Shown here: in pieces, positions 11,349-28,268 of the stretch
Layout: every line of letters starts with the position of its first letter
Numbering within the stretch: position 1 is the first letter of the stretch
Assembly (NCBI GenBank): GCA_044222185.1
Contig: JBGANV010000004.1
Location: 224,001 to 288,000, forward strand
Direction of reading: 5' to 3'
DNA length: 64,000 bases
Source: Planctomycetota bacterium
Lineage (GTDB): Bacteria; Planctomycetota; GCA-002687715; CAIWVZ01
Made by a program: the position numbers and the translations under genes
Notes under the pieces: model-generated
What the model saw: only the letters and a program-made list of their open reading frames with translations
What the model was told of the DNA's origin: nothing
Databases searched by the model: none

Positions 11349-11779
11349 GGCGGCACTCCTGGGCCGGGGGAACGCGGCCGACGTGGGTGTGCACTGTACG
11401 CGGGATCGGCCTGCCCCTCCGCATCCCAAAGTCGATGCAACGCCGGCGGCACCGCCGGCATTTTTCAGAACTGAGCCCGCCGCGTGGCTCGACCGTGTGT
11501 GTTCCGCCGAGCGCCCGCTGTTGGTGCGCTTCCACGGTCGACCCGCCGGCGGGTTCGTTCTCCCTCGTCTCGTTCGCCACTCGCCGTTCCGCGTTCGCGG
11601 GTAGACTGCCGTTACCCGAAAAAAGCCCGGCACTGTCATTTCAGGAAGTGCCACGACGCTTTGTCGAACGGAAAGGGAACGGAACCCGGCGGCGCCAGAT
11701 CCCCATGGGCGGATCGGACGCGAGGCTCGGGGTATGGATCCAATCTCTTTCGCGTGCGGCCGGAGAAAGGCGCAATGAG

Positions 11780-12469
11780 ATGGATCGGGTGGCTCAGGAT
11801 GTAGCGAATTGGATTCGGGCCGTCGCCAAGCCGGCGAACGTGGTGATCGGACCGCCCACGGATGGTGGAAGCGAGCTGACGATCTCCCTGCACCTCCACG
11901 GCATGCGACATGATCTGTCGGCGGCGATGCCGCGCAGCTCAGCGACGAAGCATGCCGTGCCACTCAGCGTCGTGGTGCGGTTCCTCGTGTGCGTCTCGTC
12001 TCCGGATCCAGCGGCGGCCCTCGCGATGCTCAGCACCGTCGTCTTCGCGGCCCTCGAAAAGCCCGGATTCCGCCTGGATCTGGATCCACCGCCGCCCGAG
12101 TTCTGGTTGGCTCACGGGGTTCGGCCGCAGCCGTCGTTCATCATCGAGGCGCCGTGCGTGCACGAGCGCCCCGGTCGCCAGGCCAAGCCGGTGCGCGAGG
12201 TGGTGCTCAAGGGCACTCCGCTCCGCACGCTCGAGGGCGTCGTCGTCGACAAGCAGGACAAGCCGATCAGCGGCGTTACCGTCGACCTCCCCGCGCTCGA
12301 ACTGACCGTTCGCACCGACAACAAGGGCCGCTTCATCTTCGCGGCCGTACCCAGGGACCTCGGCACGAAGACCTTCCGCTTGCGCGCTCGCGGCAAGGAG
12401 ATCTCCGTGCGCGCGCCGAGCCCGACGGCGCCGATGCCTTTCACAATCCGCTTCCCAGATTTGGAGTGA
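11780..12469 (+). CDS. CIS cap/terminator protein (Pvc16/DUF4255-like N-terminus plus carboxypeptidase-regulatory-like Ig domain)
   Basis: 'ISLHLHGM...LSVVVRFLVCV...EFWLAHGVRPQPSFIIE' followed by 'GVVVDKQDKPISGVTV...TDNKGRFIF'. First gene before the sheath. Confidence 0.75.
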   Translation: MDRVAQDVANWIRAVAKPANVVIGPPTDGGSELTISLHLHGMRHDLSAAMPRSSATKHAVPLSVVVRFLVCVSSPDPAAALAMLSTVVFAALEKPGFRLDLDPPPPEFWLAHGVRPQPSFIIEAPCVHERPGRQAKPVREVVLKGTPLRTLEGVVVDKQDKPISGVTVDLPALELTVRTDNKGRFIFAAVPRDLGTKTFRLRARGKEISVRAPSPTAPMPFTIRFPDLE

Positions 12470-12473
12470 TGAC

Positions 12474-13673
12474 ATGCCGAACTACATGACACCCGGGGTC
12501 TACGTCGAGGAGATCTCGACGGGACCGCGACCGATCCAGGCCGTCGGCACGAGCACGGCCGGGTTCGTCGGAGTTGCGCCCAACGCGACGGCGCACGTGA
12601 ACGAGGCGTTCGCCGTCACGAACTGGTCGCAGTTCCTGCGGGAGTTCGTGGGCAAGGCCACCAAGTCCACTCCGCTCTCCCACGCGGTGTTCGGCTTCTT
12701 CAACAACGGCGGCCAGCGCTGCTACGTCGTCAACATCGGAGACGCGAAGACGATCGGCGGCGGGGCCTCGGGCAAGAAGGGCATCCAGGTTCTCGAATCG
12801 ATCGACGAGATCGCCATCGTCGCCGCGCCCGGGTACTCGGACGCCGCGTCCTACGACATGCTCATCTCGCATGCCGAAGGGCTGAAGGATCGGGTGGCCG
12901 TGCTCGACGCGCCGAAAGACGTGGCGAACATCGACCTCCTGAAGCAGGTCGCCGTGGCAACGCCCACGGGCGCTGGCGCAGCCGCTGCGTCCGCGGCCGC
13001 CACCGCAGGGCTTCGCCCGCGGCAATCCGACCAGGGTTTCGGTGCGTTCTACTTCCCGTGGATCTACGTGCGCGATCCGCTCTCGCCGGACGATCTCGTC
13101 GCCGTGCCTCCGAGCGGTCACCTCGCGGGCATCTACGCCCGAACGGACGCCACTCGCGGTGTGCACAAGGCGCCGGCCAATGAAGCCATTCGCGGCGCGT
13201 TGAACCTGACCTACCGCATCAGTCGCCAGGAGCAGGGCGAGCTGAACCAGCTCGGCGTCAACTGCCTGCGGTTCTTCCCGAAGGAAGGCATCCGGGTGTG
13301 GGGCGCGCGCACGCTCGCCGATGGGGCGGGCGAGTGGCGGTATCTGAACGTGCGCCGGCTGTTCAACATGATCGAGAACTCGATCATGAACAGCACGCGG
13401 TGGGTGGTGTTCGAACCGAACGATCGCACCCTGTGGAAGGCGATTCGCCGCGACATCACGGCGTTCCTCACGTTGCTCTGGCGCGATGGCGCGCTCATGG
13501 GCGCGACGCCGGAAGAAGCGTTCTTCGTCCAGTGCGACGAGGAGACGAACCCGCCCGAGAGCATAGACGAAGGACGCGTGGTCACCATGATCGGCGTGGC
13601 CCCCGTGAAGCCCGCCGAGTTCATCATCTTCCGCATCGGCCAGCACGCCGGCGGTGCACAGGTCGAAGTCTGA
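12474..13673 (+). CDS. Contractile tail sheath protein
   Basis: MPNYMTPGVYVEE, VPPSGHLAGIYARTD..RGVHKAPAN, VWGARTL, WRYLNVRRL, VFEPND, PVKPAEFIIFRI. Confidence 0.96.
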   Translation: MPNYMTPGVYVEEISTGPRPIQAVGTSTAGFVGVAPNATAHVNEAFAVTNWSQFLREFVGKATKSTPLSHAVFGFFNNGGQRCYVVNIGDAKTIGGGASGKKGIQVLESIDEIAIVAAPGYSDAASYDMLISHAEGLKDRVAVLDAPKDVANIDLLKQVAVATPTGAGAAAASAAATAGLRPRQSDQGFGAFYFPWIYVRDPLSPDDLVAVPPSGHLAGIYARTDATRGVHKAPANEAIRGALNLTYRISRQEQGELNQLGVNCLRFFPKEGIRVWGARTLADGAGEWRYLNVRRLFNMIENSIMNSTRWVVFEPNDRTLWKAIRRDITAFLTLLWRDGALMGATPEEAFFVQCDEETNPPESIDEGRVVTMIGVAPVKPAEFIIFRIGQHAGGAQVEV

Positions 13674-13690
13674 GATAGGGAGCTCCTACC

Positions 13691-14152
13691 ATGCCGCAAC
13701 CAGCCCCAGCCGGAGCCCAGCCGGGACAGTTCACCGATCCCTACCGGGCCTACAACTTCAAGGTCGAGATCCAGGGCGTGACGGAAGGTCACTTCACGCA
13801 GTGCCAGGGACTCGAGGTCGACGTGCAGGTCATCCAGTACCGCGAGGCCGGCACGAGTCAGATCGTCCATCAGATTCCGGGTCGTGTCGACTACGCGGGC
13901 ATAACGCTCAAGTACGGCGTGACGAACTCGAAGGACCTGTGGGACTGGCTCATGACGGCCGTGCGCGGAAAGGTCGAACGCCGCAACGTGTCGGTCGTCA
14001 TGCTCGGACCCGACGGCGTCGACCCGGTCCTGCGTTGGGATCTGATCAACGCATGGCCGTCCCGCTGGAAGGGCGTCGGCTTCGACGCCCTCTCGCAGGA
14101 GATGGCCATCGAATCGTTGACGCTGGTCTTCGAGTCGCTCGACCGAGGATGA
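13691..14152 (+). CDS. Tail tube protein (T4 gp19-like)
   Basis: DPYRAYNFKVEI..GHF..C.GL, YREAG, ITLKYGVT, W.L.NAWP.RW, AIESLTLVFE. Confidence 0.95.
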   Translation: MPQPAPAGAQPGQFTDPYRAYNFKVEIQGVTEGHFTQCQGLEVDVQVIQYREAGTSQIVHQIPGRVDYAGITLKYGVTNSKDLWDWLMTAVRGKVERRNVSVVMLGPDGVDPVLRWDLINAWPSRWKGVGFDALSQEMAIESLTLVFESLDRG

Positions 14153-14155
14153 TCC

Positions 14156-15442
14156 ATGCCGGGCCCGCGACTATCGACGAGGGTTCTCCTCGTTGCCGCC
14201 CGTTGGCTTCAACGCGCGGCGACGGCGCTGATGCGTCGGGCCGCGGCGCGCGAGGCCGGCGAGCAGTCGGAGTCGGCGGGCACGCCTGAGACTCCCGCTG
14301 CCGATGGCTCGGGCGAGGGACCGCCGGCCCATTGGCTTGCGAGGGTGGCGACGATGACGCCGATCGCCGCCGGCGGACACGTCGTCGCGCCCGAGGCGAC
14401 ACCTCTCACGGACACGCCGACGGAAGAACCGGTCGTGATTCGACCGCGGCACGACCCGTCGCCGGTGCAACGCGGCGCTCCGTCGCCAGCGACCACGCCC
14501 GCCCCGCAGGTCGAGACTCGCGCACCCAGTCGCGTCGCACCGCGCGTGGAAGGTCCCGCGCGCGAATCGACGGAAAGCCCGTTGGCGAAGCGACCGGTGC
14601 CGCCGGACGTCGCATCGGCGCCGCGCAATGCAATCGCCCCCGACCAGTCGGAGCGAAGCGCGCCGCACACCGCGGCCGCCACCGAAGGCGGAACGACGAG
14701 GGCTCGTCCGCCTCACATGACTCCCGCCCAGCGCGCTCGCCCGGCGCGAGAGGCACCCGCACCGAGCATTGAATCCCCGAGGCCGGCACCGGCGCGCCCG
14801 GCAGCTCATGCGCCCGAGGAATCCGTCGTCGACCCGTCGCGGATGAGCCGCCCCGTCGATCGCGAGCCCGCACGGCGTTCTCCCGTACACGTGACGGCGT
14901 CGCCATCGAGCGAACATCCGCCCGTGCCCGTGCGCAGGCAGCTCGGTGCCGGCGAGACGACCACGAAACCGGCACCGCCGGCGCGATCGACGGTCGACGT
15001 GACGGCGTCGCCAGCTCGGCGAGACCAGGAGTTCCAATCGCCGTGTTCCGAGCCCTCCGTCCGCAACTCACCGCGACGAATGGCGCCGGCCGGCGACCCA
15101 GCGGCACGGGCGACGACTTCGCGCACGCCGGTTTCGGATCCGCTCGTTCCGCCGACCCGCGCGCAGCGGCCTCGCCCCGAGCTCGCGATGCCCGGTGACG
15201 ACCATCGCGCGCGGCGATCACCCGACATGCCACCGCGCGCTCCGGCGGAGACGCTCCTCCCGGGTGCGCCCGTCTGGCCCTCGCACTTGCCGGCCGACGT
15301 CGAGATCTCGGACGACCGATGGCCAAGCCTGCTGGCGCCCTCTGCACCGCGTCCCGAGGTGCTGGCCGAGCGCGCGGAGCGGGAGCGAGCGCGCCAGCGC
15401 CGGCTTCTTGCCGAGCAGCGAGGTGAATCATGGAGCGCGTAG
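14156..15442 (+). CDS. Pro/Ala/Arg-rich low-complexity CIS-associated protein
   Basis: Fills the gap between tube and tube-initiator genes in the same direction. Ordered-looking ends (GPPAHWLARV; DDRWPSL...RQRRLLAEQRGESWSA) flank a disordered core. Confidence 0.6.
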   Translation: MPGPRLSTRVLLVAARWLQRAATALMRRAAAREAGEQSESAGTPETPAADGSGEGPPAHWLARVATMTPIAAGGHVVAPEATPLTDTPTEEPVVIRPRHDPSPVQRGAPSPATTPAPQVETRAPSRVAPRVEGPARESTESPLAKRPVPPDVASAPRNAIAPDQSERSAPHTAAATEGGTTRARPPHMTPAQRARPAREAPAPSIESPRPAPARPAAHAPEESVVDPSRMSRPVDREPARRSPVHVTASPSSEHPPVPVRRQLGAGETTTKPAPPARSTVDVTASPARRDQEFQSPCSEPSVRNSPRRMAPAGDPAARATTSRTPVSDPLVPPTRAQRPRPELAMPGDDHRARRSPDMPPRAPAETLLPGAPVWPSHLPADVEISDDRWPSLLAPSAPRPEVLAERAERERARQRRLLAEQRGESWSA

Positions 15443-16200
15443 CGTTCCTCATCGAGCCCGGCGCGACGCGGATCGGGTGTCTGCTGAACCCCGAGTCGCT
15501 CACGGTCCGCCGCCTCTCGGGAATCACCAAGCGCGAGACCGCGGGCGGGGCCATCGCGGGCCGTGGCCTGTCGGACGACGTCCTGCAGTTCACCGGCGGA
15601 GGCACGACGGAGATCGATCTCGCCCTTCTCTTCGACATCGGGCTCGCCGGGTCCACGATCGCATCGTGCGACGTTCGCGATCTCACGGCCCCTCTGTGGC
15701 AGCTGTCCGAAAACGCGTCGGAAGACGGCTCGTACGGCTGCCCGCCGACCGTGCGCTTCGTGTGGGGGAAGGGCTGGAACATCCCGGGTGTCATCGCTGC
15801 CGTCTCCGAGAGACTCGACGATTTCTCCGCCGACGGCATCCCGCGACGCTCGTGGCTTCGGCTGCGCCTCATCCGCGTCCCCGAGCCCGCGCCGCGAACG
15901 GCTGGCCTCGGCCAACCGCTGATCATTCCGCAGCTGCCGGACGTGCTCGAAGCGCAGCCGGCCGTGCCCGCCGACGATGCACCCGTCCACGAGGTTCTCG
16001 GTGGGACGGTCGAGTCCGAGGGCTCGGACGCGAACATCGTGCGGGGCGATCGCATCGACACGATCGCGTTCCGCTACTGCGGAGATCCGGCGGCGTGGCG
16101 GCTGATCGCCTACATGAACGACCTGGTCGATCCGCTGCGCATCGCTGCGGGCACGCTCCTCCGCTTGCCGCAGGCCCTCGCCGCGAGGGTGAAGTCGTGA
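15430..16200 (+). CDS. CIS tube initiator / LysM-like protein (Afp7-like)
   Basis: LLNPESLTVRR, LALLFD, PPTVRFVWGK, FSADGIPRRSWLRL, and C-terminal GDRIDTIAFRYCGDPAAWRLIA..N.L.DPL. Confidence 0.88.
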   Translation: MERVAFLIEPGATRIGCLLNPESLTVRRLSGITKRETAGGAIAGRGLSDDVLQFTGGGTTEIDLALLFDIGLAGSTIASCDVRDLTAPLWQLSENASEDGSYGCPPTVRFVWGKGWNIPGVIAAVSERLDDFSADGIPRRSWLRLRLIRVPEPAPRTAGLGQPLIIPQLPDVLEAQPAVPADDAPVHEVLGGTVESEGSDANIVRGDRIDTIAFRYCGDPAAWRLIAYMNDLVDPLRIAAGTLLRLPQALAARVKS

Positions 16201-17714
16201 CCGTCGCGCTGGAGCCCGTTCGCGCGGTCGTCGAGGTCGACGGTCGCGCGATCGGAGAGGCCGATGCGCGTGCGCTGACGCAGGTCACCGTGCACCAAAG
16301 CCTCAGCCTGCCCGCCGTGTGCGAGCTGGTCTTCGTCGATCCCACGGGAGACATGGCCCGTTTGGGTGTGCGCGCCGGTGCCACGCTGTCGGTTCGCACC
16401 GCGGACGTCGGCGCGGCGTTGTTCGTCGGCGAGGTCACCGGCGTGACCTTCTCGTTCGGCCCGACGGCGTCGCGGGAAGTGCGCGTTCGTGCTTACGACG
16501 CGCTGCACCGGATGCGGAAGTCGCAGCCCACGCGCGTCCACCTCGACGTGAACACCGCGGGGCTTGCGCGGGAGCTTGCGGGCTCCTCGGGGCTCACCGT
16601 CCAAGCAGACGACGTAGGCCCCACCTGGCCCCGCATCCTCCAATGGGAGATGTCGGACCTGGACCTGCTCACGGACGTCGCGGCCCACTCCGGTCTCCAC
16701 TTCGTCGCCGACGACGAGACGCTCACGCTCGTCACGGCCGAGGGTCGCGGTGAGGCCGTCGCACTCACGCTGGGCGAGGAGCTGATCGAGGCCACGCTCG
16801 ACGTGAATGGCGACCCGGCCTGCCGAACGGTTGGCGTCTTCGGGTGGAATTGCCTGCGGAACGAACCCCATCGCGCGTCTGCGTCGGAGGCGCCCGTGGG
16901 ACATTCCATCGACCTCGCGTTCCGCCCCGATCTGATCGACGTCGATGGCGAACGGCGACTGGCGAACGTCTTCGTCACGGACGACGATCAGGCGCAGGCG
17001 GCCGCGAAGGCCGAGCTGTCGGCTCGCATCGCGCGCGAGGTGACCGTCACAGGCGCGGCACGCGGTGACGCGAAGCTCAGACCAGCGGCCAAGGTAGATC
17101 TGCGGGGGCTGGGAGAGTTCCTCGACGGCACCCACGTCGTGACGGCCGCGACCCACAGGATCCGCGCCCAGACGGGCTACGTGACCGAGTTCTCGACGAT
17201 GCCGCCCGCACCCCGTTCACGGTGCGTCGAGCCGATCCTCACCGTGGGCGTGGTCGCAAGCGTCCTCGATCCGGAACGGCTCGGGCGCGTGCAGGTGAAC
17301 CTGCCTGCGCTCGGTGACCTCGCGTCCGATTGGATGCAGGTCGTTCTGCCGGCGGCGGGCGATCGCAAGGGCCTCATCGCCGTGCCCGACGTCGGCGATC
17401 ACGTGCTCGTGGCGTTCGCGCGCGACGTGCTGGCGCAGGGGTTCGTCCTCGGCGGGCTGTTCGGCACCCGGGATCTGCCCGATGGCGCGCCTCGTGGAGG
17501 TTCGGTGCCCGTGTTCGCGTTCATGACCCCCGGTGGTCAGCGCGTTCGACTGGACGACGACGAAAAAAGCCTGCGCTTCGAGATCGCCGCGGGAAGCTTC
17601 GTGGAACTGAAGCCTGCAGCCGTGACGCTTCACGCGGCGGCCGATCTCCTGATCGAGGCACCGGGGCACGGGATCGTCATCAGGGGTCGCAAAGTCGACT
17701 TCAAGCAGAGCTGA
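16197..17714 (+). CDS. VgrG-like spike/hub (gp27-gp5 OB-fold fusion; Afp8-like)
   Basis: GTG start. QSLSLPAVCEL, AYDALHRMRK, QWEMSDLDLL, and OB-fold DPERLGRVQV..P...SDW...PDVGDHVLV; TPGGQRVRLDD. Confidence 0.9.
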   Translation: MTVALEPVRAVVEVDGRAIGEADARALTQVTVHQSLSLPAVCELVFVDPTGDMARLGVRAGATLSVRTADVGAALFVGEVTGVTFSFGPTASREVRVRAYDALHRMRKSQPTRVHLDVNTAGLARELAGSSGLTVQADDVGPTWPRILQWEMSDLDLLTDVAAHSGLHFVADDETLTLVTAEGRGEAVALTLGEELIEATLDVNGDPACRTVGVFGWNCLRNEPHRASASEAPVGHSIDLAFRPDLIDVDGERRLANVFVTDDDQAQAAAKAELSARIAREVTVTGAARGDAKLRPAAKVDLRGLGEFLDGTHVVTAATHRIRAQTGYVTEFSTMPPAPRSRCVEPILTVGVVASVLDPERLGRVQVNLPALGDLASDWMQVVLPAAGDRKGLIAVPDVGDHVLVAFARDVLAQGFVLGGLFGTRDLPDGAPRGGSVPVFAFMTPGGQRVRLDDDEKSLRFEIAAGSFVELKPAAVTLHAAADLLIEAPGHGIVIRGRKVDFKQS

Positions 17715-17715
17715 C

Positions 17716-18063
17716 ATGCACTTTCTCACCGAGGATCTCGTGATCGTGTGCCAGCACCAGACGGGGCACGTGGACGTGCCGCCGTCGCAGGATTGGGTCA
17801 CGATCGAGTCGCGTCGGGTGATCATCGAGCCGGATCCGGAAGGGCGGCCCATCTCTGGGTGCCTGAACTTCAACCCGGCGGCCGGCATCCGCCCGTGCAA
17901 GACGACGCTGCCCGTGCGCGCCGGTTACTCCGAGTGGATCAAGATCGATGGACACCGCGTGTCCCTGGATTCGGTCGTCGGGTTCACGGATGGGACGCCG
18001 CCGCGCATCGTCGATTACATCGTTCGCGCACCGGGGCAGTGTCTCGTGTCGGAGATCCCGTGA
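17716..18063 (+). CDS. PAAR-like spike tip protein
   Basis: 115 aa directly after VgrG, with CQHQTG, ISGC and PCKTT putative metal ligands. Confidence 0.7.
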   Translation: MHFLTEDLVIVCQHQTGHVDVPPSQDWVTIESRRVIIEPDPEGRPISGCLNFNPAAGIRPCKTTLPVRAGYSEWIKIDGHRVSLDSVVGFTDGTPPRIVDYIVRAPGQCLVSEIP

Positions 18064-18491
18064 GCGCCCCGCGTTGGAGAGGCTGGAGGTTCGAGCAACC
18101 AGCGATCGACATGCCCGACGAGGCGGCCGGGCTCTCCACCTCGGCGTCCGGCGGCATCGAGACGGTCGACGGTCACGCGGCCGTCCGCCAATCGCTGCTC
18201 ATGCTGCTGTCGACCACGCCGGGCGAGCGCGTCATGCGCCCTGATTACGGGTGCGACCTGCGGCGACTCGTGTTTTCGCCCAACGACGACACGACCGCGG
18301 GACTCGCGATCCACTACGTTCGACAGGCGGTCGCGCGATTCGAGCCGCGCGTCAAGGTTCTGCGGATCGACGCCGTGCGCGTCGAGTCCGAACCCGGCCG
18401 CCTCGACCTCGTGCTCGAGTATTGCCTCCGCTCGACGCTCGAGCGCAACACGCTGACGTTCAACATCGGCCTGTCCGGAGATCAGACGTGA
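18060..18491 (+). CDS. Baseplate wedge GPW/gp25 protein
   Basis: AVRQSLLMLLSTTPGERVMRPDYGC, AVARFEPRV. Confidence 0.93.
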   Translation: MSAPRWRGWRFEQPAIDMPDEAAGLSTSASGGIETVDGHAAVRQSLLMLLSTTPGERVMRPDYGCDLRRLVFSPNDDTTAGLAIHYVRQAVARFEPRVKVLRIDAVRVESEPGRLDLVLEYCLRSTLERNTLTFNIGLSGDQT

Positions 18492-21067
18492 CGGCGTCCT
18501 TCGAATCACCGAACCTCGACGATCGCACGTTCCAGCAGTTGATGGACGAGGCGGTGGCCCGCGCGAAGCAGGCGTGCCCGTCGTGGACGGACTTCTCACC
18601 GGGCGACCCCGGTGTCACGTTGCTCGAGCTCTTTGCATTCCTCACGGAGACGCTGATCTATCGGCTAAATCGCGTGCCCGAGAAGGCGTACGTGGAGTTC
18701 CTCCGGCTGCTCGGCGTGCGACTCGCGCCTCCGTCTTCGGCCGCTGCCACGCTCGTGTTCTCGCGCGCCCGGGCCGGGGATCGGCCGCTCGTGATTCCGC
18801 GCGGAACCCGCGTGACGGTGTCGCGCACCGGCGCTGGAGCCGAGCCCCCCGTCTTCACCACGGATCGGGAGGTCTCGATCCCGGCGGGCGCCACCGACGT
18901 CAAGGTGAATGCGCATCACGCGGATCTCGTGGAAGGCGAGCTGCTCGGAACTTCGACCGGCGCGCCCGGCCAGACGTTCACGGTGAAGCGCGCGCCGATC
19001 ATCGCGCCCAGCGGAGATGAACTCGATTTCGTGCTCGGCGTCGAGGCGGCCGCAGGCGAACTCGTCGATCGAAAGAACGCGGTCTCGTTCGGCGAAAAGG
19101 CCTACGCGATCTGGCGCGAGGTGGAGAACTTCGGGTCCACGTCGCCCGACTCTCTGGCATTCGTGGTGGATCGCGCGACCGGGCGCGTGACTTTCGGTGC
19201 CGGCGTTCGCGGCGCACGCCCCGGGGAGACCGCCGTTCGAGGATTGGCGGCCATCCCGGCAGCGGGCCGACAGATTCGCTGCTGGTACCGCTGCGGCGGT
19301 GGCGTCGCCGGGAACGTGGCCGCGGGAATGCTGACGGTGCTGAAGGACCCCATCGCCGGCGTGACCGTCACGAACCCTGCACTGGCGACGGGCGGGCGCG
19401 CCGCGGAGACGCTGCAGAACGCGCTGGTGCGCGGCCCCCAGGAGTTCCGATCGCTGGAGCGCGCGGTCACCGCCGACGACTTCGAGCTGCTCGCCATCCG
19501 TTCGTCGGGAGCCGTGTCGCGCGCGAAGGCGTCGAATCTCGCGGATACGTGGGCGCACGCGGTGCCGGGGACCGTCGAGGTCGTCCTCGTGCCGGCCGTG
19601 CCCGCCGATGCGGCACCGCGCGGTGTCGTCACACGTGCGACGCTCGCGGAGCGCGAGACCGAAGGTGCCCGCGCCCGAATCCAGGAGGCGCTCGACGCGC
19701 GACGCACGCTGGGTACGAACTGCCGCGTGACCTGGGCCCGCTACAAGGCCGTCACCGTGACGGCGCGCGTCGTCATTCATCGAGAGGAGGACCCGGAGGC
19801 GATCCGTCGGACCCTGCTCGAGAGGCTCCACCGCGCCATCAACCCCGTCTCCACGTCCGCGGATCACCAGGGGTGGCGCTTCGGCCAGCCGCTTCGCGTG
19901 TCCACGGTCTACGACCTGGCGCTTTCGGAGCCGGGAGTGAAGTTCGCCGACGGTGTCGCGCTCGTCGTCGACGAGGTCCCTGCGGGCGCCGTCACGTGCC
20001 TCGCGCGAGACGGCCACCAGCCGCGGACGTGTTTCGCGACGGCGGGCGACTCGCTCTTCCGGACCGGAAACGACGCGGACGGCTGGGAGCGCGTGGGGCG
20101 GTTCGACGGCGAGACGGTCAACGTGGTCGAGACGCACGAGGGCATGGCGGGCGTGGTCGGGTGTGCAACGTCACTCGGCGACGCGGACGGCAGCTCGCGG
20201 ATCCGCGTCTCGACGGACTGCGGCGAGACCTGGCGCGTGGCGGCGCAGTTCGCGTTTCCGGTCAACGATCTCGCGTGGATGACGCGGGACCAGGTCCCCG
20301 TGCTTCTCATGGCGACCGAGAAGGGGCTTTACGAGATCGCACTCAAGGACGGCGCGACGCCGCTTCAGATACTCGTCGTCGACAGCGCGCAAGACCTGGG
20401 CATGACTGCCGTCGCGGTGGCCGTCGACCCACGCGGTGCCGTCACCGTCGCGGTCGCTGCCCGGCAGACGCGGGGCGTCTTCATCTCCGGGCGAGGCGGG
20501 GAGCCCAAGTCGTTCCGCCCCGCACCCGGGCTCGAGGGGGCGGACATCGCCGCACTCGAGGTGCAACGCGACGGCCCGCGCTCGTTCCTCTGGGCCGGGT
20601 TCTCCGCCGAGATGGGCGAAGAGGGGCGCGGCTGCTCGCGGCGCGAGATTCGCGCATCCGAGGATGCACCAGCGACGTGGGAACCAGTGGCCAAGGGATG
20701 GAGCGGCGGGAGCTGCAACGCGCTGGCGTTCCTCCCCGATGCCGTCGTTGCGGCCACGCGGCGCGCGGGCGTGCTGCGACTGCCGGCCGGACCGGGAGGC
20801 GGCGCCTGGGAACCGTGCGACATCAACTGCGGGCTTCCACTGCGCGACAAGTCCCGCCTTCACCCGGTGGACGCCGTCGCGGCGAGCCCAGCGGGCGTCG
20901 TCCTCGCTGGCGGTCCCGTCGGTGTCTTTCGGACCCAGGACGGCGGAAAGAGCTGGGTCGCGCGGTCGACCCGAGAACACACGGATCGGGTGACGATCCC
21001 CGAGAACTGGCTCTTCTGCAGCGGCGATCACACGCTGACAGTCGTCAGCGAGGACGCGGCGACGTGA
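18488..21067 (+). CDS. Baseplate J-like (Afp11-like) protein with an inserted BNR-type beta-propeller
   Basis: PNLDDRTFQQL, WTDFSPGDPGVTLLELFA, YRLNRVPEK, RAVTADDFE, GWRFGQPL. Then about 330 aa with Asp-box-like STDCGETW and TQDGGKSW before the terminal strand RVTIPENWLFCSGDH. Confidence 0.88.
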   Translation: MTASFESPNLDDRTFQQLMDEAVARAKQACPSWTDFSPGDPGVTLLELFAFLTETLIYRLNRVPEKAYVEFLRLLGVRLAPPSSAAATLVFSRARAGDRPLVIPRGTRVTVSRTGAGAEPPVFTTDREVSIPAGATDVKVNAHHADLVEGELLGTSTGAPGQTFTVKRAPIIAPSGDELDFVLGVEAAAGELVDRKNAVSFGEKAYAIWREVENFGSTSPDSLAFVVDRATGRVTFGAGVRGARPGETAVRGLAAIPAAGRQIRCWYRCGGGVAGNVAAGMLTVLKDPIAGVTVTNPALATGGRAAETLQNALVRGPQEFRSLERAVTADDFELLAIRSSGAVSRAKASNLADTWAHAVPGTVEVVLVPAVPADAAPRGVVTRATLAERETEGARARIQEALDARRTLGTNCRVTWARYKAVTVTARVVIHREEDPEAIRRTLLERLHRAINPVSTSADHQGWRFGQPLRVSTVYDLALSEPGVKFADGVALVVDEVPAGAVTCLARDGHQPRTCFATAGDSLFRTGNDADGWERVGRFDGETVNVVETHEGMAGVVGCATSLGDADGSSRIRVSTDCGETWRVAAQFAFPVNDLAWMTRDQVPVLLMATEKGLYEIALKDGATPLQILVVDSAQDLGMTAVAVAVDPRGAVTVAVAARQTRGVFISGRGGEPKSFRPAPGLEGADIAALEVQRDGPRSFLWAGFSAEMGEEGRGCSRREIRASEDAPATWEPVAKGWSGGSCNALAFLPDAVVAATRRAGVLRLPAGPGGGAWEPCDINCGLPLRDKSRLHPVDAVAASPAGVVLAGGPVGVFRTQDGGKSWVARSTREHTDRVTIPENWLFCSGDHTLTVVSEDAAT

Positions 21068-21077
21068 TGGTGATCGA

Positions 21078-21638
21078 ATGAAGACGGACGACATCATCCT
21101 CCTGCTGCCGGCGGTGTATCAGCGCGCACTCGCGCCGGGTTCGCCGCTGCGAGCCGTGCTCTCCGTGATGCAGGGGCTCCACGAGCCCGTCGAGGCATCG
21201 CTCGCGACGCTCGACGCCGACTTCGATCCGCTCAGGGCGCCGCCGGCGTTCCTGCCGTTCCTCGCGCGATGGCTCGACCTCACGCGGCTGTTCGACGACC
21301 CCGATCGGGGGAGCGACGCCGAAAGACGGTCCATCCAACGACGACGCATGGCTTCCGTTGGAGACGGCCCGCTGCGCACGCTGATTGCGGCCGGCGCCGA
21401 GCTCAGTCGCCGACGGGGCACGCCGGCGGGGCTGATTCGCTGCCTCGAACTCGCGACCGGAGTCCGCGGATTCCGCCTCGACGAGGGGCCGGCCGATGCT
21501 CTCGGTCGTCCCCGCCCCTTCCATTTCCGGGTCCGCGCGCCGCTCGAGTCACGGCGCCATCAGGTCCTCATCGAACGAATCATCACATCGGAGAAGCCGG
21601 CTCACGTCACTCACGAGTTGGCGTTCGAGACGCGCTGA
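21078..21638 (+). CDS. Phage tail/baseplate protein (P2 gpI-like)
   Basis: LLPAVYQ, FDPLRAPPAFLPFLARWL, RRGTPAGL, EKPAHVT. Confidence 0.88.
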   Translation: MKTDDIILLLPAVYQRALAPGSPLRAVLSVMQGLHEPVEASLATLDADFDPLRAPPAFLPFLARWLDLTRLFDDPDRGSDAERRSIQRRRMASVGDGPLRTLIAAGAELSRRRGTPAGLIRCLELATGVRGFRLDEGPADALGRPRPFHFRVRAPLESRRHQVLIERIITSEKPAHVTHELAFETR

Positions 21639-21652
21639 ACAGGAGCAGAGCC

Positions 21653-23200
21653 ATGCCGAGCCCATTTGCCATCACACCGTCGGCCGACACCGTCGCGATC
21701 GATGCGAATCGCAGGGGAGAAGTCGCGTTCACCGTGTCGAACACGTCGGCGGCCCCCGTGCGCAGCCGGGGGAAGGTCGTTGCCGGCGACCCGGCTCAAC
21801 AGGCCTGGTACTCGCTCGCGGGGAACCCGGAGCGCCCGCTCAAGCCCGGCGAGACCACGCAGTACGTCGTCCGCGTCGCGTTGCCGCAGACGGCGACGGA
21901 GGGCACGTACCAGTTCCGCCTGGATGCCGTCTCCGTCGAGAACCCCGACGAGATGTTCACCACGGGGCAGCCCGTCGGGTTCACGTTCAAACCGCCCGCG
22001 GAGCCGCCCAAGAAGCCGTTCCCCTGGTGGATCCTCGCCGTCGTCGGCGGAGCGCTGCTCATCATCGGCGTCGTCCTCTTCTTCGTTCTACGGAACACGG
22101 ACGTCACGGTCCCCGATCTGAAGAACATGACGTACGAGGAGGCCGTGGACGCGTTGACGCAGGCCGGGCTCGAAGCGGAGGAGATCCAGGTCGTGGCCGG
22201 CGGACCGGAGAACAAGGTCAGCGGGCAGGACCCCGCGCCGGATACGCAGGTCCCGAAGAACTCGGTGGTGAAGGTCACGCACGAAGCAGCCTTCGTCGAA
22301 GTGCCGGCACTCGTGCGCACGCAGATCGATGACGTGGCCGAGGCGCTCAAGGCGCGCAAGCTCGCGCAGGGCACGGTGGCCGAAGTGAAGCGTGACGTGA
22401 GCAAGGCCGGCCTGGTGCTCGAGCAGGATCCGGCGGCCGGCACGCGCGTTCCCGCGGGGACGGCCGTCGCCGTCGTCGCCGAAGCCCCGTTGCGCAAAGT
22501 CCCGACGGACCTCGTGGGAAAGAAGACCCGAGAAGTCGTCGAGAGGCTGAGCGCCGATTTCGAAGTGAAGGTCGGCGACCCGAAGCGCAGTGATCGGACG
22601 AAGGCCGGGCAGGTGCTCGCCTCCGACCCGCGCGGCGGCACCGTCCTGCAGCGCGGCGACGTCGTCAATCTGGACGTCGAGGCCGGGAATCTCACGCTCA
22701 TGAGCGTGGTGGGACTGGCCCCGGACAAGGCGATCGAAGAGCTCCGCACGAAGCAGGGGTTGAAGTCGAAGATCGGTGCGCCGGCGCTCTTGCCCGTGGG
22801 CGCGCCGGGCGTGGTGGGGAAGATCGGCTACACGAATCCACCACCAAACAGCGACGTCGCGGAGACGGACACGATCGAGATCATCCCCATCGGCGCCGAG
22901 GCGAAGATGCCCGACGGACTCATCGGCCTGGTGCGAGACCAGGCGGAGGCGGCCGTCACGCGTGCGCACCTGAAGCCTGTCGTGCGCCTGCAATTCGATC
23001 GGCTGAACAGCAACAAGGTGCTGCGGATCGATCCCGCCGCGAACACGCGCTTGCTGGCCGAGTCGCCAGTGACGATCTACGTCGGTTCGAGCCACGTCCG
23101 CTTCCCGCGCCCCGGCCTGGTCGATGCCGGCATGCTCACCGACGTCGTCATCCCGGTCGGCGGGACCGGCCCCGTTCGTCGCGCGACGGGCGGCCACTGA
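21653..23200 (+). CDS. Bitopic membrane protein: Ig-like N-terminal domain, TM helix, five PASTA repeats
   Basis: AGGAG RBS and no signal peptide. Beta-rich N-domain, PPKKPFPWW plus a hydrophobic helix, then five ~65-aa repeats (VPDL...QDPAPD; VPAL...QDPAAG; VPTDL...SDPRGG; LMSVVG...TNPPPN; MPDGLIG...IDPAAN). Confidence 0.85.
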   Translation: MPSPFAITPSADTVAIDANRRGEVAFTVSNTSAAPVRSRGKVVAGDPAQQAWYSLAGNPERPLKPGETTQYVVRVALPQTATEGTYQFRLDAVSVENPDEMFTTGQPVGFTFKPPAEPPKKPFPWWILAVVGGALLIIGVVLFFVLRNTDVTVPDLKNMTYEEAVDALTQAGLEAEEIQVVAGGPENKVSGQDPAPDTQVPKNSVVKVTHEAAFVEVPALVRTQIDDVAEALKARKLAQGTVAEVKRDVSKAGLVLEQDPAAGTRVPAGTAVAVVAEAPLRKVPTDLVGKKTREVVERLSADFEVKVGDPKRSDRTKAGQVLASDPRGGTVLQRGDVVNLDVEAGNLTLMSVVGLAPDKAIEELRTKQGLKSKIGAPALLPVGAPGVVGKIGYTNPPPNSDVAETDTIEIIPIGAEAKMPDGLIGLVRDQAEAAVTRAHLKPVVRLQFDRLNSNKVLRIDPAANTRLLAESPVTIYVGSSHVRFPRPGLVDAGMLTDVVIPVGGTGPVRRATGGH

Positions 23201-23204
23201 GGCG

Positions 23205-23678
23205 ATGTCCGGCACCCGCATCGCCATCGTCGTGCTCGTGCTGATCGCCATCTTCGTGGCGGTCGCGTTGTTCGTCGGCCTGGGGCGCGACGATGGCGGA
23301 ACGGCCGTCGAGACGAAGGCGTGGCAGAAACGGCTGAAGAGTTTCGTCTCCGATCAGCAGAAGCTGCCGCTCTCGGACGTGAAGGGCGTCGGCGTGGACG
23401 GCGATCGCATCGTGCTCACCGCGGCAATCCCTGCAACCACTCTCACGATCCGAGAGAGCGACCAGAACCTGCGGTCCGCCCGGCTGCGCCTCCTCAGCGG
23501 TACCCGCGTGAAGGTCGAGGTCGTTCCCAAGGGTGCCGATCGCCCGCGCGTGAAGGCCGAGTTGAAGAACGTCAACGACGCGCTCGCCCTCCAGGTGTTT
23601 CGCGAAGGCGCCACGCTCGCGATCCTCGGCGGCGGCGCGGGCGCGTCGACCATCCTGCGGATCGAGCCGGCGGAGTGA
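23205..23678 (+). CDS. N-terminally anchored hypothetical membrane protein (CIS operon)
   Basis: MSGTRIAIVVLVLIAIFVAVALFVGLG followed by a beta-rich domain; starts 4 bp after the PASTA gene. Confidence 0.75.
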   Translation: MSGTRIAIVVLVLIAIFVAVALFVGLGRDDGGTAVETKAWQKRLKSFVSDQQKLPLSDVKGVGVDGDRIVLTAAIPATTLTIRESDQNLRSARLRLLSGTRVKVEVVPKGADRPRVKAELKNVNDALALQVFREGATLAILGGGAGASTILRIEPAE

Positions 23679-23784
23679 ACCCGCGTCGATCGGGGCGCGG
23701 CCGAGGCCGCATGTCGTGATCGACGGAGATCGTCTGGCGATGCCCCTGTTGCGAGTCCGTGGCTTCACGCAGTAGGCTTTGCCG

Positions 23785-24117
23785 ATGAACGAGCCGGGAG
23801 AACCGCCGACGTCCCCACCTCCACCCGTCGGGAAGGCGCCACGCCAGGAAGGCTGTCTCTGGGCGCTGATCTCGCCGTTGATCTTCCTCTTCCTCGGCTG
23901 TGCGGCCATCGGGTTGCCGCTCGCCGCCGTGTCCGGCCTCATCATCGGCCCGGCGTGCTTGTTGTGGGACAAGGAAATGACGGGCGAGGCGCCGGAGGAA
24001 CGTCACCGCACCGGATGGGTGATGCTCGCGATCGGCGTGATCTCCGCGCTCATCATCTACGTGGTGCGACTGCGCACGAAGCTCGCGTCGGCGACGAAAT
24101 CCATCGCCGCGAAGTAG
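23785..24117 (+). CDS. Small hypothetical membrane protein
   Basis: 2-3 hydrophobic helices in 110 aa. Confidence 0.55.
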   Translation: MNEPGEPPTSPPPPVGKAPRQEGCLWALISPLIFLFLGCAAIGLPLAAVSGLIIGPACLLWDKEMTGEAPEERHRTGWVMLAIGVISALIIYVVRLRTKLASATKSIAAK

Positions 24118-24174: not shown

Positions 24175-26007
24175 CTACTTGCCCTGGCGTTGCTTCAGCA
24201 GTCGCTCGAACTCCTGCTGCGCCTTGAGGCCGCCATCCATCGGGGGCGCCGAGAGTCCGAGGTTGCGGTCGTGTTCCACCGTGTACGTGTAGTTGAGGAA
24301 GAACGCCTTCTCGCCGTTGGCAGCGGCCGGCACCGACAGATCCCAGCGGAGGATGCCCATGGGACGCCCGAGCCGCAGGTAGCTCGGATCCTCGCTGAGC
24401 TTGGCGTTCATCTCGCCCAACGTGACGCTGAGGCTTTCGGTGCGGTCGGCATGCGGCAGCCGGTCATGCAGCCGGACGGTCACTGGCGTGGACTTGTAGT
24501 TCTCGATCACGAGCCGGTACTTCAATGTCGACATCTTGTTGCCGCCCTGGATCTTCTCCGACTTGTCCACCTGCTCGCGCCGCGTGCGGACTTGCGGATC
24601 GACGCCGAAGCCCACCACGAACGTCTGGCCGTGAGCGACCGAGTCGATCTCGCCGCGACCCACGAAGCTCCCATCCAGGTAGACGCTCATGGGGCCGCCG
24701 AGGAGGTCGAGCGGGCTCGAGTTGACGAGCTCGGCCTCGCGGTAGACGAACCCGGTGAGCACGGGGCTCGCCACGAAGTACGCCGTGCTCTTCAGCTTCA
24801 CAGCCGTGATCCGGACGAGCTGCTGTTCGTCGCGGCTGGCGAGGCTGACCCGCGTCTCCAGCGGATACGTGAGGCTCGGCCCCTCGACCGTCGCCGTCGC
24901 CTCGTCGTTGAGCGATTGGAGGATCTCGCGGCGTTCGAGCAACTCCATCGCCTGACCGGCGTTGGCGACCGCGTTCATCTCGAAGCTCGTGCTGAGGTTG
25001 TCGCTCGGGTTGAGCGCGGCGCGATTGGCGGCGACGGCCACCTGGCGACGGCTGCGGAGGTCGTTGAACTGGCCGACGACCGATCCCGGATCGGTCTTGG
25101 CGGCGGCCTGCGCCTCCGTCTGCAACGCGGGCCGCAGACTCACGGCGAAGGGTGCCATGGCTGGCGCGGCTGCGTTCAATCCAGGCGATGCGGTCGACAG
25201 CGTCAGCTCCACTCCCGCCCAGTCCTCGCCACTCATCTGGTGGATGAGAGCGTTGCACTCCACGTCGACCGAGGTCATGTCACCGCCCGTGCGGAAGTTG
25301 TAGGTCGGCGCCCAGCCGCAGCCGTTCACGAGGTAGCTGACTCGCAGAGGGGTTGGTTCGGCGCGTCGCTTTTCGACGAAGAGGACGCCTTCGCGAACGG
25401 TCTTCGTCGTGCCTTGGGCAAGCTCGGCGCGCTGGCGCGTGAGGAGGTTCGACTGCGCTTCGAGGTCCCGGGATTCCTTCGCGAGCGTCAGGCTCTCCTC
25501 GGTCGCCTTCTTGCGCTGATCGAAGTTGAAGAGAACGAGCCGTTCGAGTGCCTCGGGGTTGAGGATGCCCTTCGACATCTCGGCCGTGGCTGCCGGCGCG
25601 ACGAAGTTCTCGAGCTTCTCCAATGACGCGAGCCGTCGCTGCACCAGCTCCTGGCCCTTGGCGACTGCCGCTATCTTCTCCGCGAGGAGCTGCAGCTTGG
25701 CGTCGATCTCGCGGACGGCCTCCCGGGGCTCTTCGCTCACGGCGCTCGACCGGAACCGCACGGCCCGGACCTCGAGGCCGTCGACGGACTCGGCGAACAG
25801 GCTGCTGGGTACGACCTGGTCGGGGAGGCCCGACACGACCACTTCGCGGGCGCCGGCGGGGCCGTCGATCGTGAGCGTCCGCGTGACGAGTGCCTGCCCG
25901 CCGCGGAACAGTGTGACGCTGTCGACCTTTCCGGGCACTGCGGGTCCCTGGGAAAACGCTACCGCCGCGAGCGCGACGTGAATCAGAACGATGCGCGAGT
26001 ACGCCAT
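24175..26007 (-). CDS. DUF4140/DUF4139 (MuiA-like) exported protein
   Basis: Signal peptide, VDSVTLF..QALVTR, coiled coil, VSYLV...W.PTY, QMSGEDW.GVELTLSTA, GPMSVYLDGSFVG, FGVDP. Confidence 0.88.
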   Translation of the reverse strand: MAYSRIVLIHVALAAVAFSQGPAVPGKVDSVTLFRGGQALVTRTLTIDGPAGAREVVVSGLPDQVVPSSLFAESVDGLEVRAVRFRSSAVSEEPREAVREIDAKLQLLAEKIAAVAKGQELVQRRLASLEKLENFVAPAATAEMSKGILNPEALERLVLFNFDQRKKATEESLTLAKESRDLEAQSNLLTRQRAELAQGTTKTVREGVLFVEKRRAEPTPLRVSYLVNGCGWAPTYNFRTGGDMTSVDVECNALIHQMSGEDWAGVELTLSTASPGLNAAAPAMAPFAVSLRPALQTEAQAAAKTDPGSVVGQFNDLRSRRQVAVAANRAALNPSDNLSTSFEMNAVANAGQAMELLERREILQSLNDEATATVEGPSLTYPLETRVSLASRDEQQLVRITAVKLKSTAYFVASPVLTGFVYREAELVNSSPLDLLGGPMSVYLDGSFVGRGEIDSVAHGQTFVVGFGVDPQVRTRREQVDKSEKIQGGNKMSTLKYRLVIENYKSTPVTVRLHDRLPHADRTESLSVTLGEMNAKLSEDPSYLRLGRPMGILRWDLSVPAAANGEKAFFLNYTYTVEHDRNLGLSAPPMDGGLKAQQEFERLLKQRQGK

Positions 26008-26302
26008 GATGGATCTCCGATGAACTTCCGCCGACGTGATTGGCGACGTGAGGATCCTACGAATCACGTCGAATGACGCGCGTCACGGCCCCGTAACGAG
26101 TGGCGGGGACGAGCGGATTCTGCGGCGTGCATCCGCGGTCCGCGGACTGCACGCGGGCGTCGGCCGACGCCATCGGCCGCACCTCCTCGCGGGCGTTTCG
26201 ATCGTCGGTGAGACCGTCGCAGGCGATGCGCGAATCCCGCTCCGCTGCCCGCGGGAACGATCGAGACAGGCTGCTGGCTCGAGACCCTGACTGGGACGCG
26301 CG

Positions 26303-27123: not shown

Positions 27124-27900
27124 TCAGAAGATCCCTTTGATGACCGCGACGATGGCGAAGATCAGCATGAACAACGCCCAGATCAAAGCCAGCACCGAGG
27201 TGATGAGGGCGCCCAGCGCGTCCGTGATGCTGACGAGGATGATGGGCACGAACCCATGGAGGAACGCCAGGAGCAAGCCAGCGACGACGGTCATCAGGAA
27301 GAGAATCACGAGGCCCTTGTTCTTCAGGAACGTCGGGTGGGCGAAGACCAGCAGCCCGCCGCTGACGAGCTTGAGCGTGAGAGTGAGCCCGAGTGTCGCG
27401 GCGGCACCGCCGCGGTTGAAGAACCCGAACAGCGCGAGATAGGCGATCGTGCCGAACGGGGCCGCGAGGAACAGACCCACCATCAAAAGCAGGAGCTCCA
27501 ATGCCACGAGCAGCATCACGAACGATCCGATGATCGTGACGATCGACACGATGAACGAGAGCACGACCTGGAGCTTGCCCGAGAGCCCCTGCGTGAGGAG
27601 CAGGCTGAGACCCATCAGGATCATCGCGTAGAGGAGAAGTCCGTCCACGAGCGCCAGGTACTTGATGCCGATCCCGGGAGGATCGGCCTTGGCGTTCATG
27701 CGACGCACCTCGTGCTTGAGATCGTCCTTGTCGACGTCGTCGTCATCGCTGACGTTCTGCTCGACCATGGAATCGAGTTGCGCCGTCGTCGCCTGGATCT
27801 TGCCCAGGAGCGAGTCCGCGCCGACGTCGATCAGGACGACGACGAATGCGAGCGCGGCCGCGATCCAGAACAGTGGTTTGCGGAGTCCGTCCATGGGCAT
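27124..27900 (-). CDS. Polytopic membrane protein of unknown function
   Basis: About 7 TM segments; PPGIGIKYLALVDG, LAAPFGTIAY, FLKNKGLV, FLHGFVP..LVSITDA. Coupled to the upstream DCC1-like gene. Confidence 0.8.
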   Translation of the reverse strand: MPMDGLRKPLFWIAAALAFVVVLIDVGADSLLGKIQATTAQLDSMVEQNVSDDDDVDKDDLKHEVRRMNAKADPPGIGIKYLALVDGLLLYAMILMGLSLLLTQGLSGKLQVVLSFIVSIVTIIGSFVMLLVALELLLLMVGLFLAAPFGTIAYLALFGFFNRGGAAATLGLTLTLKLVSGGLLVFAHPTFLKNKGLVILFLMTVVAGLLLAFLHGFVPIILVSITDALGALITSVLALIWALFMLIFAIVAVIKGIF

Positions 27901-28268
27901 CATCGAGCCTGGTGGCGCATCTGTTTCACGAGCAGCCAGGCCCCTGCGAACAGGTGCGAGAACGGACGGATTCTCAGTAGTGGCGCGAGCCAGGACCAGC
28001 CCGGGAGCGCGGCGACGACCGGAGCCACCACGTCGACGCCCCGAAGGATGCGCCCATCCGGCAGCATGAGATGGACGTCACGCGTGGTCGAATCCGCCGG
28101 CAACCCATGTCGCGCGATCAGGTCGGAGGCTTGCGACGCCGGGATCAGGTCGACGCGGCGGCGTGCGTCTCGGCGACGTATCCCGTCGGCGATCGAGCGG
28201 CACAGGGGGCAGGTGTCGTCATAGACCAGGACGAGCCTTTCGGCCGGTTCGGGCGCGGCCTCGTTCAC
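27900..28268 (-). CDS. DCC1-like thiol-disulfide oxidoreductase (DUF393)
   Basis: LVLVYDDTCPLC (DxxCxxC); GTG start overlaps the upstream stop. Confidence 0.85.
   Translation of the reverse strand: MNEAAPEPAERLVLVYDDTCPLCRSIADGIRRRDARRRVDLIPASQASDLIARHGLPADSTTRDVHLMLPDGRILRGVDVVAPVVAALPGWSWLAPLLRIRPFSHLFAGAWLLVKQMRHQAR

Follow-up and report, generated by a model that had tools for sequence, protein, structure and literature searches.

We identified, in a 64,000-nucleotide stretch of a planctomycete genome (assembly GCA_044222185.1, contig JBGANV010000004.1, positions 224,001 to 288,000; this whole stretch is called the window below), an operon for a contractile injection system (CIS) whose genes run directly into genes for membrane proteins. 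The operon occupies positions 11780-24117 of the window and comprises 13 open reading frames (ORFs), all on the + strand. Judged by its genes, the small-sheath CIS lineage to which it belongs is widespread and related to the cytoplasmic CIS of Streptomyces. We favour, with about even confidence, the interpretation that a conserved envelope module, present instead of tail fibres, links the CIS of this lineage to the inner membrane. The module consists of single-pass proteins with an immunoglobulin-like (Ig) N-terminal domain and one transmembrane (TM) helix, here called Ig-TM proteins, and of two membrane partners that we term m1 and m3.

The original prediction made from this DNA had described a tightly coupled operon without phage head genes, ending in an Ig-TM protein with PASTA domains, and the operon proved real and its coordinates exact. 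The genes for sheath, tube, gp25, baseplate J, VgrG and tube initiator lie together, which confirms that the locus encodes a headless CIS, and scans of 51 window ORFs with Pfam (20 + 31) and of 15 with PHROGs gave no match to a capsid, portal or terminase family. Consecutive genes are separated by gaps or overlaps of -13 to +47 nt as far as m1, with 14 nt separating the Ig-TM gene from that for the wedge protein gpI before it and 4 nt from m1 after it; 106 nt then follow ahead of the next gene, m2. The genome (7.08 Mb, 93.8% complete) contains a single sheath match, and the Ig-TM gene is its sole PASTA-bearing ORF.

The protein encoded directly after gpI has the following build.

21653..23200, + strand: single-pass Ig-TM-PASTA protein of 515 amino acids, with the Ig domain at residues 5-112, the TM helix at 125-147 and five PASTA domains

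The AlphaFold2 model calculated from a 102-sequence alignment (predicted local distance difference test score, pLDDT, 94.5) consists of an 8-strand beta-sandwich spanning residues 5-112, a short linker rich in lysine and proline, and the helix at 125-147. The top Foldseek matches of the sandwich were PapD-like pilus chaperones (PapD, Caf1M, SafB) and FixG-related, ASH and MSP domains, with E-values of ~1e-5 and TM-scores of 0.45-0.53. No Pfam model matched the Ig domain above threshold, and its leads among protein clusters, all below 0.9, included a 'PASTA domain-containing protein' and FixG_C/Cep192-type Ig clusters. The five PASTA stretches after the TM helix were recognised by Pfam (E 1.3e-39).

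An N-terminal hydrophobic segment was found in none of the 102 family sequences, the window protein included, and the TM helix starts at a median residue of 127. Lysine and arginine in the 15 residues flanking the helix averaged 2.20 before it and 1.50 after it; the count was higher before the helix in 63 of 107 cases, equal in 22 and lower in 22. The N-domain is free of cysteine in 77 of 102 sequences. Because there is no signal segment, because positive charge is biased towards the N-terminal flank and cysteines are scarce in the N-domain, and because PASTA domains usually lie outside the cytoplasm, these features support a predicted topology with the N-terminus in and the C-terminus out. 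The single TM helix, the signal-less Ig domain and the five PASTA domains were thus all borne out (AlphaFold2, Pfam, hydrophobicity), and the earlier prediction of a cytoplasmic N-domain fits what the family sequences display.

Conservation was assessed first within the phylum. A search of 401 planctomycete genomes with the window protein returned N-domain matches in eight. Seven of the eight hold a syntenic CIS locus in which gpI comes last; immediately behind it lie between one and four ORFs that share the build of an N-domain of ~125 amino acids, one TM helix and a variable C-terminus. The sole exception, G059, holds an N-domain-like match and no CIS genes within the 17.8 kb examined. The reciprocal search of the same genomes with gpI found close gpI homologues (E 7.4e-30 to 2.2e-42) in the same seven genomes.

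Across phyla, we examined the loci of the best 80 of 582 baseplate-J relatives in species-representative genomes, three of which share contigs with the earlier loci. They come from Verrucomicrobiota, Myxococcota, Chloroflexota, Acidobacteriota, Gemmatimonadota, Planctomycetota, Deinococcota, Alpha-, Beta- and Gammaproteobacteria, Desulfobacterota, Nitrospirota and Actinomycetota, and cultivable carriers of baseplate-J relatives include Nitrococcus mobilis Nb-231, Desulfobacter curvatus DSM 3379 and strains of Caulobacter, Deinococcus, Myxococcus and Micromonospora. A hidden Markov model (HMM) of the N-domain matched 104 ORFs in 68 of the 80 loci. For conservation counts, the denominators were loci with at least 1.5 kb (Ig-TM), 3 kb (m1) or 5 kb (m3) of sequence after baseplate J. 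On this basis the N-domain was present in 66 of 68 loci and lay directly downstream of baseplate J, on the same strand, in 64; it stood upstream of the cap gene in L078 and L114 and was missing from L052 and L105. Forty loci carry one Ig-TM copy, 18 carry two, six carry three and two carry four. Among 1.84 billion representative sequences the family has 6440 members with a cut-off of E 1e-3 and 1336 with one of E 1e-30, and in nearly all of the best 150 of the 6440 matches the domain is N-terminal.

The genus Deinococcus offered a within-genus comparison, since it holds two sheath types. Among 111 genomes, 38 gave a sheath match, ~29 of the large type (ORFs of ~530-650 amino acids) and seven of the small type found in the window; the two types occupy different species (genomes G401-G514). 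Strong N-domain matches (E 4e-46 or better) occurred in exactly the seven small-sheath genomes, ~9.3 kb from the sheath gene and on the same strand, and in none of the ~29 large-sheath genomes. Lack of conservation beside CIS loci, which the original prediction had named as refuting it, was not seen: an Ig-TM gene stands there in 64 of the 68 loci, in all seven planctomycete genomes with a close gpI and in all seven small-sheath Deinococcus genomes. On these counts we reject the reading that the gene is an unrelated neighbour. The system is not peculiar to Planctomycetota, as related loci span more than ten phyla.

The part of the protein beyond the membrane is far less constant. PASTA domains were counted by hand in 51 of the 104 Ig-TM family ORFs, in 40 loci, in one to seven copies per protein that begin immediately past the TM helix, and such versions occur in both diderm and monoderm phyla. 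Other family members carry PKD, PG_binding_1, ricin, discoidin (F5/8 type C), laminin-G, PAN, PD40 propeller, CARDB or FG-GAP domains in this place. No enzymatic or pore-forming C-terminal family was found among the 104 proteins in the Pfam scan. PASTA is therefore the commonest of several interchangeable binding modules, and the putative cell-wall sensing of the earlier interpretation does not define the system.

The original prediction had also placed two further membrane proteins after the PASTA gene. One of them, m1, proved to be conserved; the other, m2, did not; and the third conserved membrane protein of the lineage, m3, lies outside the range that had been considered.

23205..23678, + strand: m1, an N-terminal TM anchor followed by a small beta-sandwich ectodomain (jackhmmer; AlphaFold2 pLDDT 88.9)
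23785..24117, + strand: m2, a small hydrophobic protein, not conserved (sub-threshold TctB match only)
27124..27903, - strand: m3, a polytopic protein with 5-6 TM helices (family HMM E 1.2e-79, the sole match in the genome)

Jackhmmer returned 65 m1 matches in 63 of 87 loci, and m1 was present in 54 of the 59 loci with enough downstream sequence. The fold search with m1 gave only weak matches to jelly-rolls resembling cupins or carbohydrate-binding modules (TM-scores 0.3-0.4), and we make no assignment. In 28 of 43 homologues, the window copy not among them, four or more cysteines lie in the ectodomain; cysteine-rich m1 and cysteine-poor N-domains fit an arrangement with the m1 domain outside and the Ig domain inside. 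In two planctomycete loci (L034:5287-6015 and L035:5782-6537, both - strand), an m1-type gene with an acidic, Asp/Gln-rich N-terminus stands after gpI and ahead of the Ig-TM genes, which shows that the membrane genes do not keep to one order. No homologue of m2 was found in related loci. We detected m3 by clustering all ORFs downstream of gpI; it occurs in 52 of 53 loci with enough sequence, on the opposite strand in 37 cases and on the same strand in 21, and no Pfam family matches it. In Deinococcus, m3 matches (46-48% identity, ~10.8 kb from the sheath gene) were confined to the same seven small-sheath genomes.

The membrane genes are near-universal in the lineage, fixed in position and specific to it, and their recognised ectodomains are binding modules only, which argues for a structural or regulatory envelope module. 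The Ig-TM gene occupies the position that tail fibres hold in extracellular CIS (eCIS) and that CisA holds in Streptomyces. In the mechanism that we propose, the particle would assemble in the cytoplasm and its baseplate would engage the cytoplasmic Ig domains, a contact that would set the machine end-on at the inner membrane. The ectodomain would hold or report on the cell's own wall, with peptidoglycan or lipid II as the presumptive ligand of the PASTA versions, and contraction would drive the spike into or perhaps through the envelope of the producer itself. Coupling of this kind could be permanent, as a tether, or a passing step that docks or triggers the particle.

The Streptomyces CIS is cytoplasmic and causes cell death under stress, and it cannot fire without CisA, a bitopic protein whose gene follows those of the baseplate (PMC12237407). 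CisA (SCO4242) has its N-terminus in and its C-terminus out, with an extracytoplasmic domain, and is proposed to recruit the particle from the cytoplasm to the membrane (PMC12237407).

Several observations weigh against an envelope-coupled machine. The positive-inside bias of the Ig-TM family is modest, and as about half of the family has no PASTA domain, wall sensing is not a general property. The Pfam scan of the operon found neither an AAA+ ATPase nor a recognisable effector. Extended Streptomyces particles were seen free in the cytoplasm (PMC12237407, PMC10020575), as were those of Roseiflexus and of two Deinococcota CIS of the same subtype, and the purified complex did not include CisA (PMC12237407). 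In an S. coelicolor deletion of the apparently homologous genes sco4256-4258, particles still assembled and ~85% of them had an empty lumen, from which the authors infer that the missing proteins are cargo (PMC10066040). The imaging of Deinococcus (PMC12998442) is not transferable to the small-sheath lineage, because the genus holds both sheath types; the imaged strains probably carry the other one, most CIS-bearing Deinococcus having the large sheath. Since particles of the related subtype in Streptomyces, Roseiflexus and Deinococcota were imaged free in the cytoplasm, a permanent membrane tether is doubtful.

A bolder version of the envelope module is possible, although we hold it only tentatively. 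The three proteins would then mark a separate, phylum-spanning class of CIS that docks on the inner membrane of the producer from the cytoplasm, and the interchangeable ectodomains (PASTA, peptidoglycan-binding, lectin) would be receptors of wall status that time firing, making the Ig-TM protein a 'transmembrane tail fibre' with which the cell reads its own peptidoglycan. If this were so, the Streptomyces 'effectors' Sco4256-58 would become receptor or adaptor proteins.

Those same Streptomyces proteins suggest a different role, in which the Ig-TM-PASTA protein is cargo, its N-domain is a loading handle that puts it in or on the particle, and the fired protein, which would insert into membranes and bind the wall, harms the producer's envelope or a neighbour's. 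We compared the window N-domain with a family of single-pass proteins found in 31 of 301 Actinomycetes genomes, from which 32 first domains were aligned. Profile alignment with hhalign matched the window N-domain to the first Ig domain of the actinobacterial proteins with 97.7% probability (E 1.8e-12, 101 columns), and plain HMMER detected no link between the two families in the four large-sheath actinobacterial loci that we examined, two of which hold such proteins. The alignment points to a remote homology of the two domains. The builds differ, in that a pair of tandem Ig domains precedes a TM helix at ~221-252 in the actinobacterial proteins, whereas the window family has one Ig domain and a helix at ~127. 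The settings differ as well: in the one locus examined, the actinobacterial gene lies between the ATPase and sheath genes, whereas the Ig-TM gene of the window follows gpI and is accompanied by m1 and m3. C-termini of the actinobacterial family include ricin, PG_binding_1, ChW, fn3 and CarboxypepD_reg repeats.

These actinobacterial proteins fit the published description of the Sco4256-58 class (first a PapD-like domain, next a TM helix, then a domain of lectin or toxin character), to which they are matched by that description. Sco4256, Sco4257 and Sco4258 have been called 'CIS-associated effectors' (PMC10066040) and 'putative toxin' (PMC10020575). They are toxic in E. coli, and stress-induced death is lost in the triple mutant (PMC10066040), phenotypes which, together with the empty lumen, speak for cargo. 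Vladimirov et al. (PMC10020575) found Sco4256 in all three of their particle preparations, noted that its first domain resembles pilus-assembly chaperones, and reported that actinomycetes, cyanobacteria and Chloroflexi carry homologues in their class IId clusters. Like the window family, these proteins combine a PapD-like N-domain, one TM helix and a variable, lectin-like C-domain, and their genes sit in CIS clusters, frequently as paralogues in tandem, and are seldom found outside them. Polymorphic effectors, too, typically pair a constant N-terminus with a changing C-terminus and come as tandem paralogues.

If the Ig-TM proteins were cargo, however, their presence at a fixed, tail-fibre position in 64 of 68 loci would be surprising, as near-universality and fixed position are typical of structural parts. 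Their recognised C-termini are all binding modules, and a TM helix without a signal peptide is expected to insert into the membrane upon synthesis. Toxicity upon overexpression does not single out effectors either, for it was reported for CisA as well (PMC12237407), and the equation of the actinobacterial proteins with the SCO genes is by description only. On balance we consider a cargo role unlikely, though it deserves to be taken seriously.

An outward-firing machine would put the conserved membrane proteins to another use. Here the three would form a fixed, peptidoglycan-anchored platform, like the membrane complex of a type VI secretion system (T6SS), from which the CIS fires at other cells. 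Three conserved membrane proteins do accompany the locus, peptidoglycan-binding ectodomains (PASTA, PG_binding_1) are among them, the conserved propeller of baseplate J could be a membrane-proximal contact, and there is precedent in the membrane-bound CIS of haloarchaea, with its 6-TM anchor, and in T6SS subtype iv. Such a platform would nevertheless have to cross a diderm envelope without an outer-membrane component in the locus, and the closest solved relative acts inside the cell. No effector-immunity pair and no ClpV-like or other ATPase was identifiable in or beside the operon; TssJLM, a TssBC sheath and ClpV were likewise not among the operon's family matches, although no search was aimed at them. 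We regard the platform as improbable.

That the locus encodes an ordinary released eCIS, its membrane proteins serving lysis, release or an unrelated envelope function, is very improbable: the gene set does resemble that of an eCIS, and the layout of m1 (an N-terminal anchor and a cysteine-bearing periplasmic domain) is presumably like that of some phage lysis proteins, but families of tail fibres, endolysins or holins were not found in Pfam and PHROGs scans of the window ORFs, the Ig-TM gene and m3 co-occur strictly with the small sheath, which argues against chance neighbours, and the Ig domain keeps its N-terminal place in nearly all of the best 150 of its 6440 family matches.

The remaining genes of the operon encode the particle itself.

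11780..12469, + strand: cap or tail terminator, with a Cis16-like N-domain and a CarboxypepD_reg-like beta-sandwich (profile search against the PDB; PF13620, E 2.9e-8)
12474..13673, + strand: small contractile sheath, 399 amino acids (PF17482, E 4.2e-21; PF04984, E 2.7e-16)
13691..14152, + strand: inner tube protein (PF06841, E 8.9e-38; TIGR02241, E 3.5e-39)
14156..15442, + strand: proline-rich low-complexity protein, 428 amino acids, with a conserved C-terminal tail W-P-x-L...E-Q-R-G-x-x-W
15430..16200, + strand: CIS_tube initiator with a LysM-like C-terminus, kept in related loci (PF19266, E 3.8e-9)
16197..17714, + strand: VgrG-like spike with an OB-fold (PF04717, E 9.6e-19; NF033848 VgrG_rel, E 2.8e-50)
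17716..18063, + strand: Cys/His protein of 115 amino acids at the position of the spike tip (PAAR), identity unconfirmed (position, conserved residues)
18111..18491, + strand: gp25/TssE-like baseplate wedge (PF04965, E 2.1e-24; TIGR03357, E 5.8e-10)
18488..21067, + strand: baseplate J, Cis11-like, 859 amino acids, with a ~360-residue C-terminal BNR-type beta-propeller (PF04865; TIGR02243; profile search against the PDB)
21078..21638, + strand: gpI, a Cis12-like small wedge protein (PF09684, E 6.2e-7; TIGR02242, E 1.3e-15)

The cap is the first conserved gene of this locus type. With its single sequence no Pfam family matched the N-terminal half; a profile of 35 homologues matched S. coelicolor Cis16 (9gts_0A, a Pvc16 N-terminal domain protein) at E 1.8e-8 and Afp16 at E 0.0049. 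The best solved relative of the sheath is the 534-residue sheath of PDB entries 8bky and 9gtp (E 1.8e-111), the latter confirmed to be the entry for the S. coelicolor CIS baseplate. In baseplate J, profile positions 137-491 matched S. coelicolor Cis11 (9gtp_1K, 652 amino acids; E 4e-103) and positions 499-858 matched BNR propellers such as 3b7f. The BNR/Asp-box propeller, encoded at 20000-21067 of the window, is kept in all 74 aligned homologues.

Two of these particle ORFs gave no family match. The proline-rich ORF matched nothing in Pfam, PHROGs or NCBIfam. Across loci L032-L119, the ORF in the gap between tube and initiator varies in sequence and ranges in length from 94 to 1202 amino acids, and a loose regular expression for the tail motif W-P-x-L ... 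E-Q-R-G-x-x-W-N/S found it in 45 of 59 distinct loci, across phyla. This protein may be a tape-measure-like or lumen protein of the lineage. The 115-residue Cys/His protein has homologues in 84 loci, with a mean column identity of 69% and invariant residues C12, H14, C49 and C61, and no sequence match in Pfam, PHROGs, NCBIfam or the PDB. Of the 'PAAR-like' label given to it earlier, only the position and these four residues stand, so that a PAAR identity is a guess from position.

The operon begins downstream of a divergent intergenic region.

11349..11779, no strand: ~430 bp between the CHRD gene (- strand) and the cap gene (+ strand), presumed promoter region of the CIS operon

A search of it for a sigma-70 consensus gave none, and a scan for promoters and terminators gave nothing above shuffled background. 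Upstream of cap, no gene is conserved across related loci. The neighbour on that side (9831-11348, - strand) encodes a secreted protein with three CHRD domains (E 1.7e-57) and is not kept beside related loci; its signal-peptide-like start was placed at ~11348, and codon-position GC content falls upstream of that point. At the other end, a gene for a DUF4139/DUF4140 protein (24175-26067, - strand) converges with the operon, and ~1 kb without a convincing ORF (26068-27123) separates it from m3. Genes for a caspase-family protein (Peptidase_C14; 31257-32450, - strand) and an S41 peptidase (33937-35541, + strand) lie 7-10 kb downstream of the operon, and a link of these to CIS-mediated cell death is possible. 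The window is otherwise high-GC (~68%) housekeeping DNA of planctomycete character, with PSCyt1, PSCyt2, PSD1 and DUF1501 genes and a hopanoid-type cluster (51545-55594 and 57841-60720, both + strand) that encodes squalene/phytoene synthase, squalene-hopene cyclase, a PNP_UDP_1 phosphorylase and an MMPL/sterol-sensing transporter.

Full-text searches of the accessible libraries found no paper that joins PASTA domains with contractile injection or eCIS, and judged by titles and the starts of abstracts, none of the papers on CIS in Planctomycetes describes such a system. PASTA and transmembrane proteins are both absent from what Geller et al. (2021) write in their main text. In 12 of the 15 files of its supplement, PASTA appears five times in eCIS loci without enrichment (odds ratio 0.91), and two planctomycete operons are included, both from Brocadia. 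For the small-sheath lineage we found no published imaging. For subtype IId, both the single-pass family with its PapD-like domain and the concept of a membrane adaptor have already been published. What appears to be new is the lineage itself, the fixed tail-fibre position, the PASTA ectodomains, the two additional conserved membrane proteins and the spread among diderms.

CisA is the one case studied of how cytoplasmic CIS reach the membrane and come to fire, and it gave no contact structure. The small-sheath lineage offers a folded and well-predicted cytoplasmic domain, two further membrane partners and ectodomain families with known ligands. It also extends the PapD-like single-pass family, reported for IId only, to diderm phyla, where the family is near-universal and stands at the tail-fibre position; this spread bears on whether its members are toxins or adaptors.

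Compared with known systems, the window operon departs from eCIS of the Afp/PVC type in that neither the Cis15 ATPase nor the Cis13 tail fibre was found in it or conserved upstream of it, and for the Cis14 tape measure the proline-rich ORF with its conserved tail is the sole candidate stand-in. The TM helix and PASTA domains align with the C-terminal half of the model for Stk1 kinases of the PknB type (residues 121-342, E 2.7e-40), at 139 bits against a cut-off of 450. The PASTA sensors PknB and PBP2x have a kinase or transpeptidase output domain; the window protein has neither and carries an Ig domain instead. Membrane or fibre-position proteins are conserved in other CIS too, and they correlate with membrane-bound action. 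The haloarchaeal 6-TM anchor Hbor_38620 resembles m3 only in being polytopic and belongs to a different CIS lineage, as do Aasi_0556 of T6SS subtype iv and the thylakoid-anchored CIS.

The closest solved counterpart is the cytoplasmic CIS of Streptomyces (dbeCIS subtype IId), which supplies the best solved matches for sheath, baseplate J and cap and, like the window, has no conventional tail fibre and a small gpI-type wedge protein. The two differ in the sheath (534 amino acids in Streptomyces, 399 in the window) and in baseplate J, where Cis11 has 652 amino acids and no propeller and the window protein has 859 with a BNR propeller. Large-sheath loci have an ATPase gene beside cap, which the window lineage does not. 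In Streptomyces CisA follows the baseplate genes, whereas in the window a different gene follows gpI. The parallel with CisA drawn by the original prediction holds for position and predicted topology, in which alone the two proteins are alike, and not for build: CisA has an unstructured cytoplasmic N-terminal region and a substrate-binding-like C-terminal domain, and the window protein pairs a folded Ig domain with PASTA repeats.

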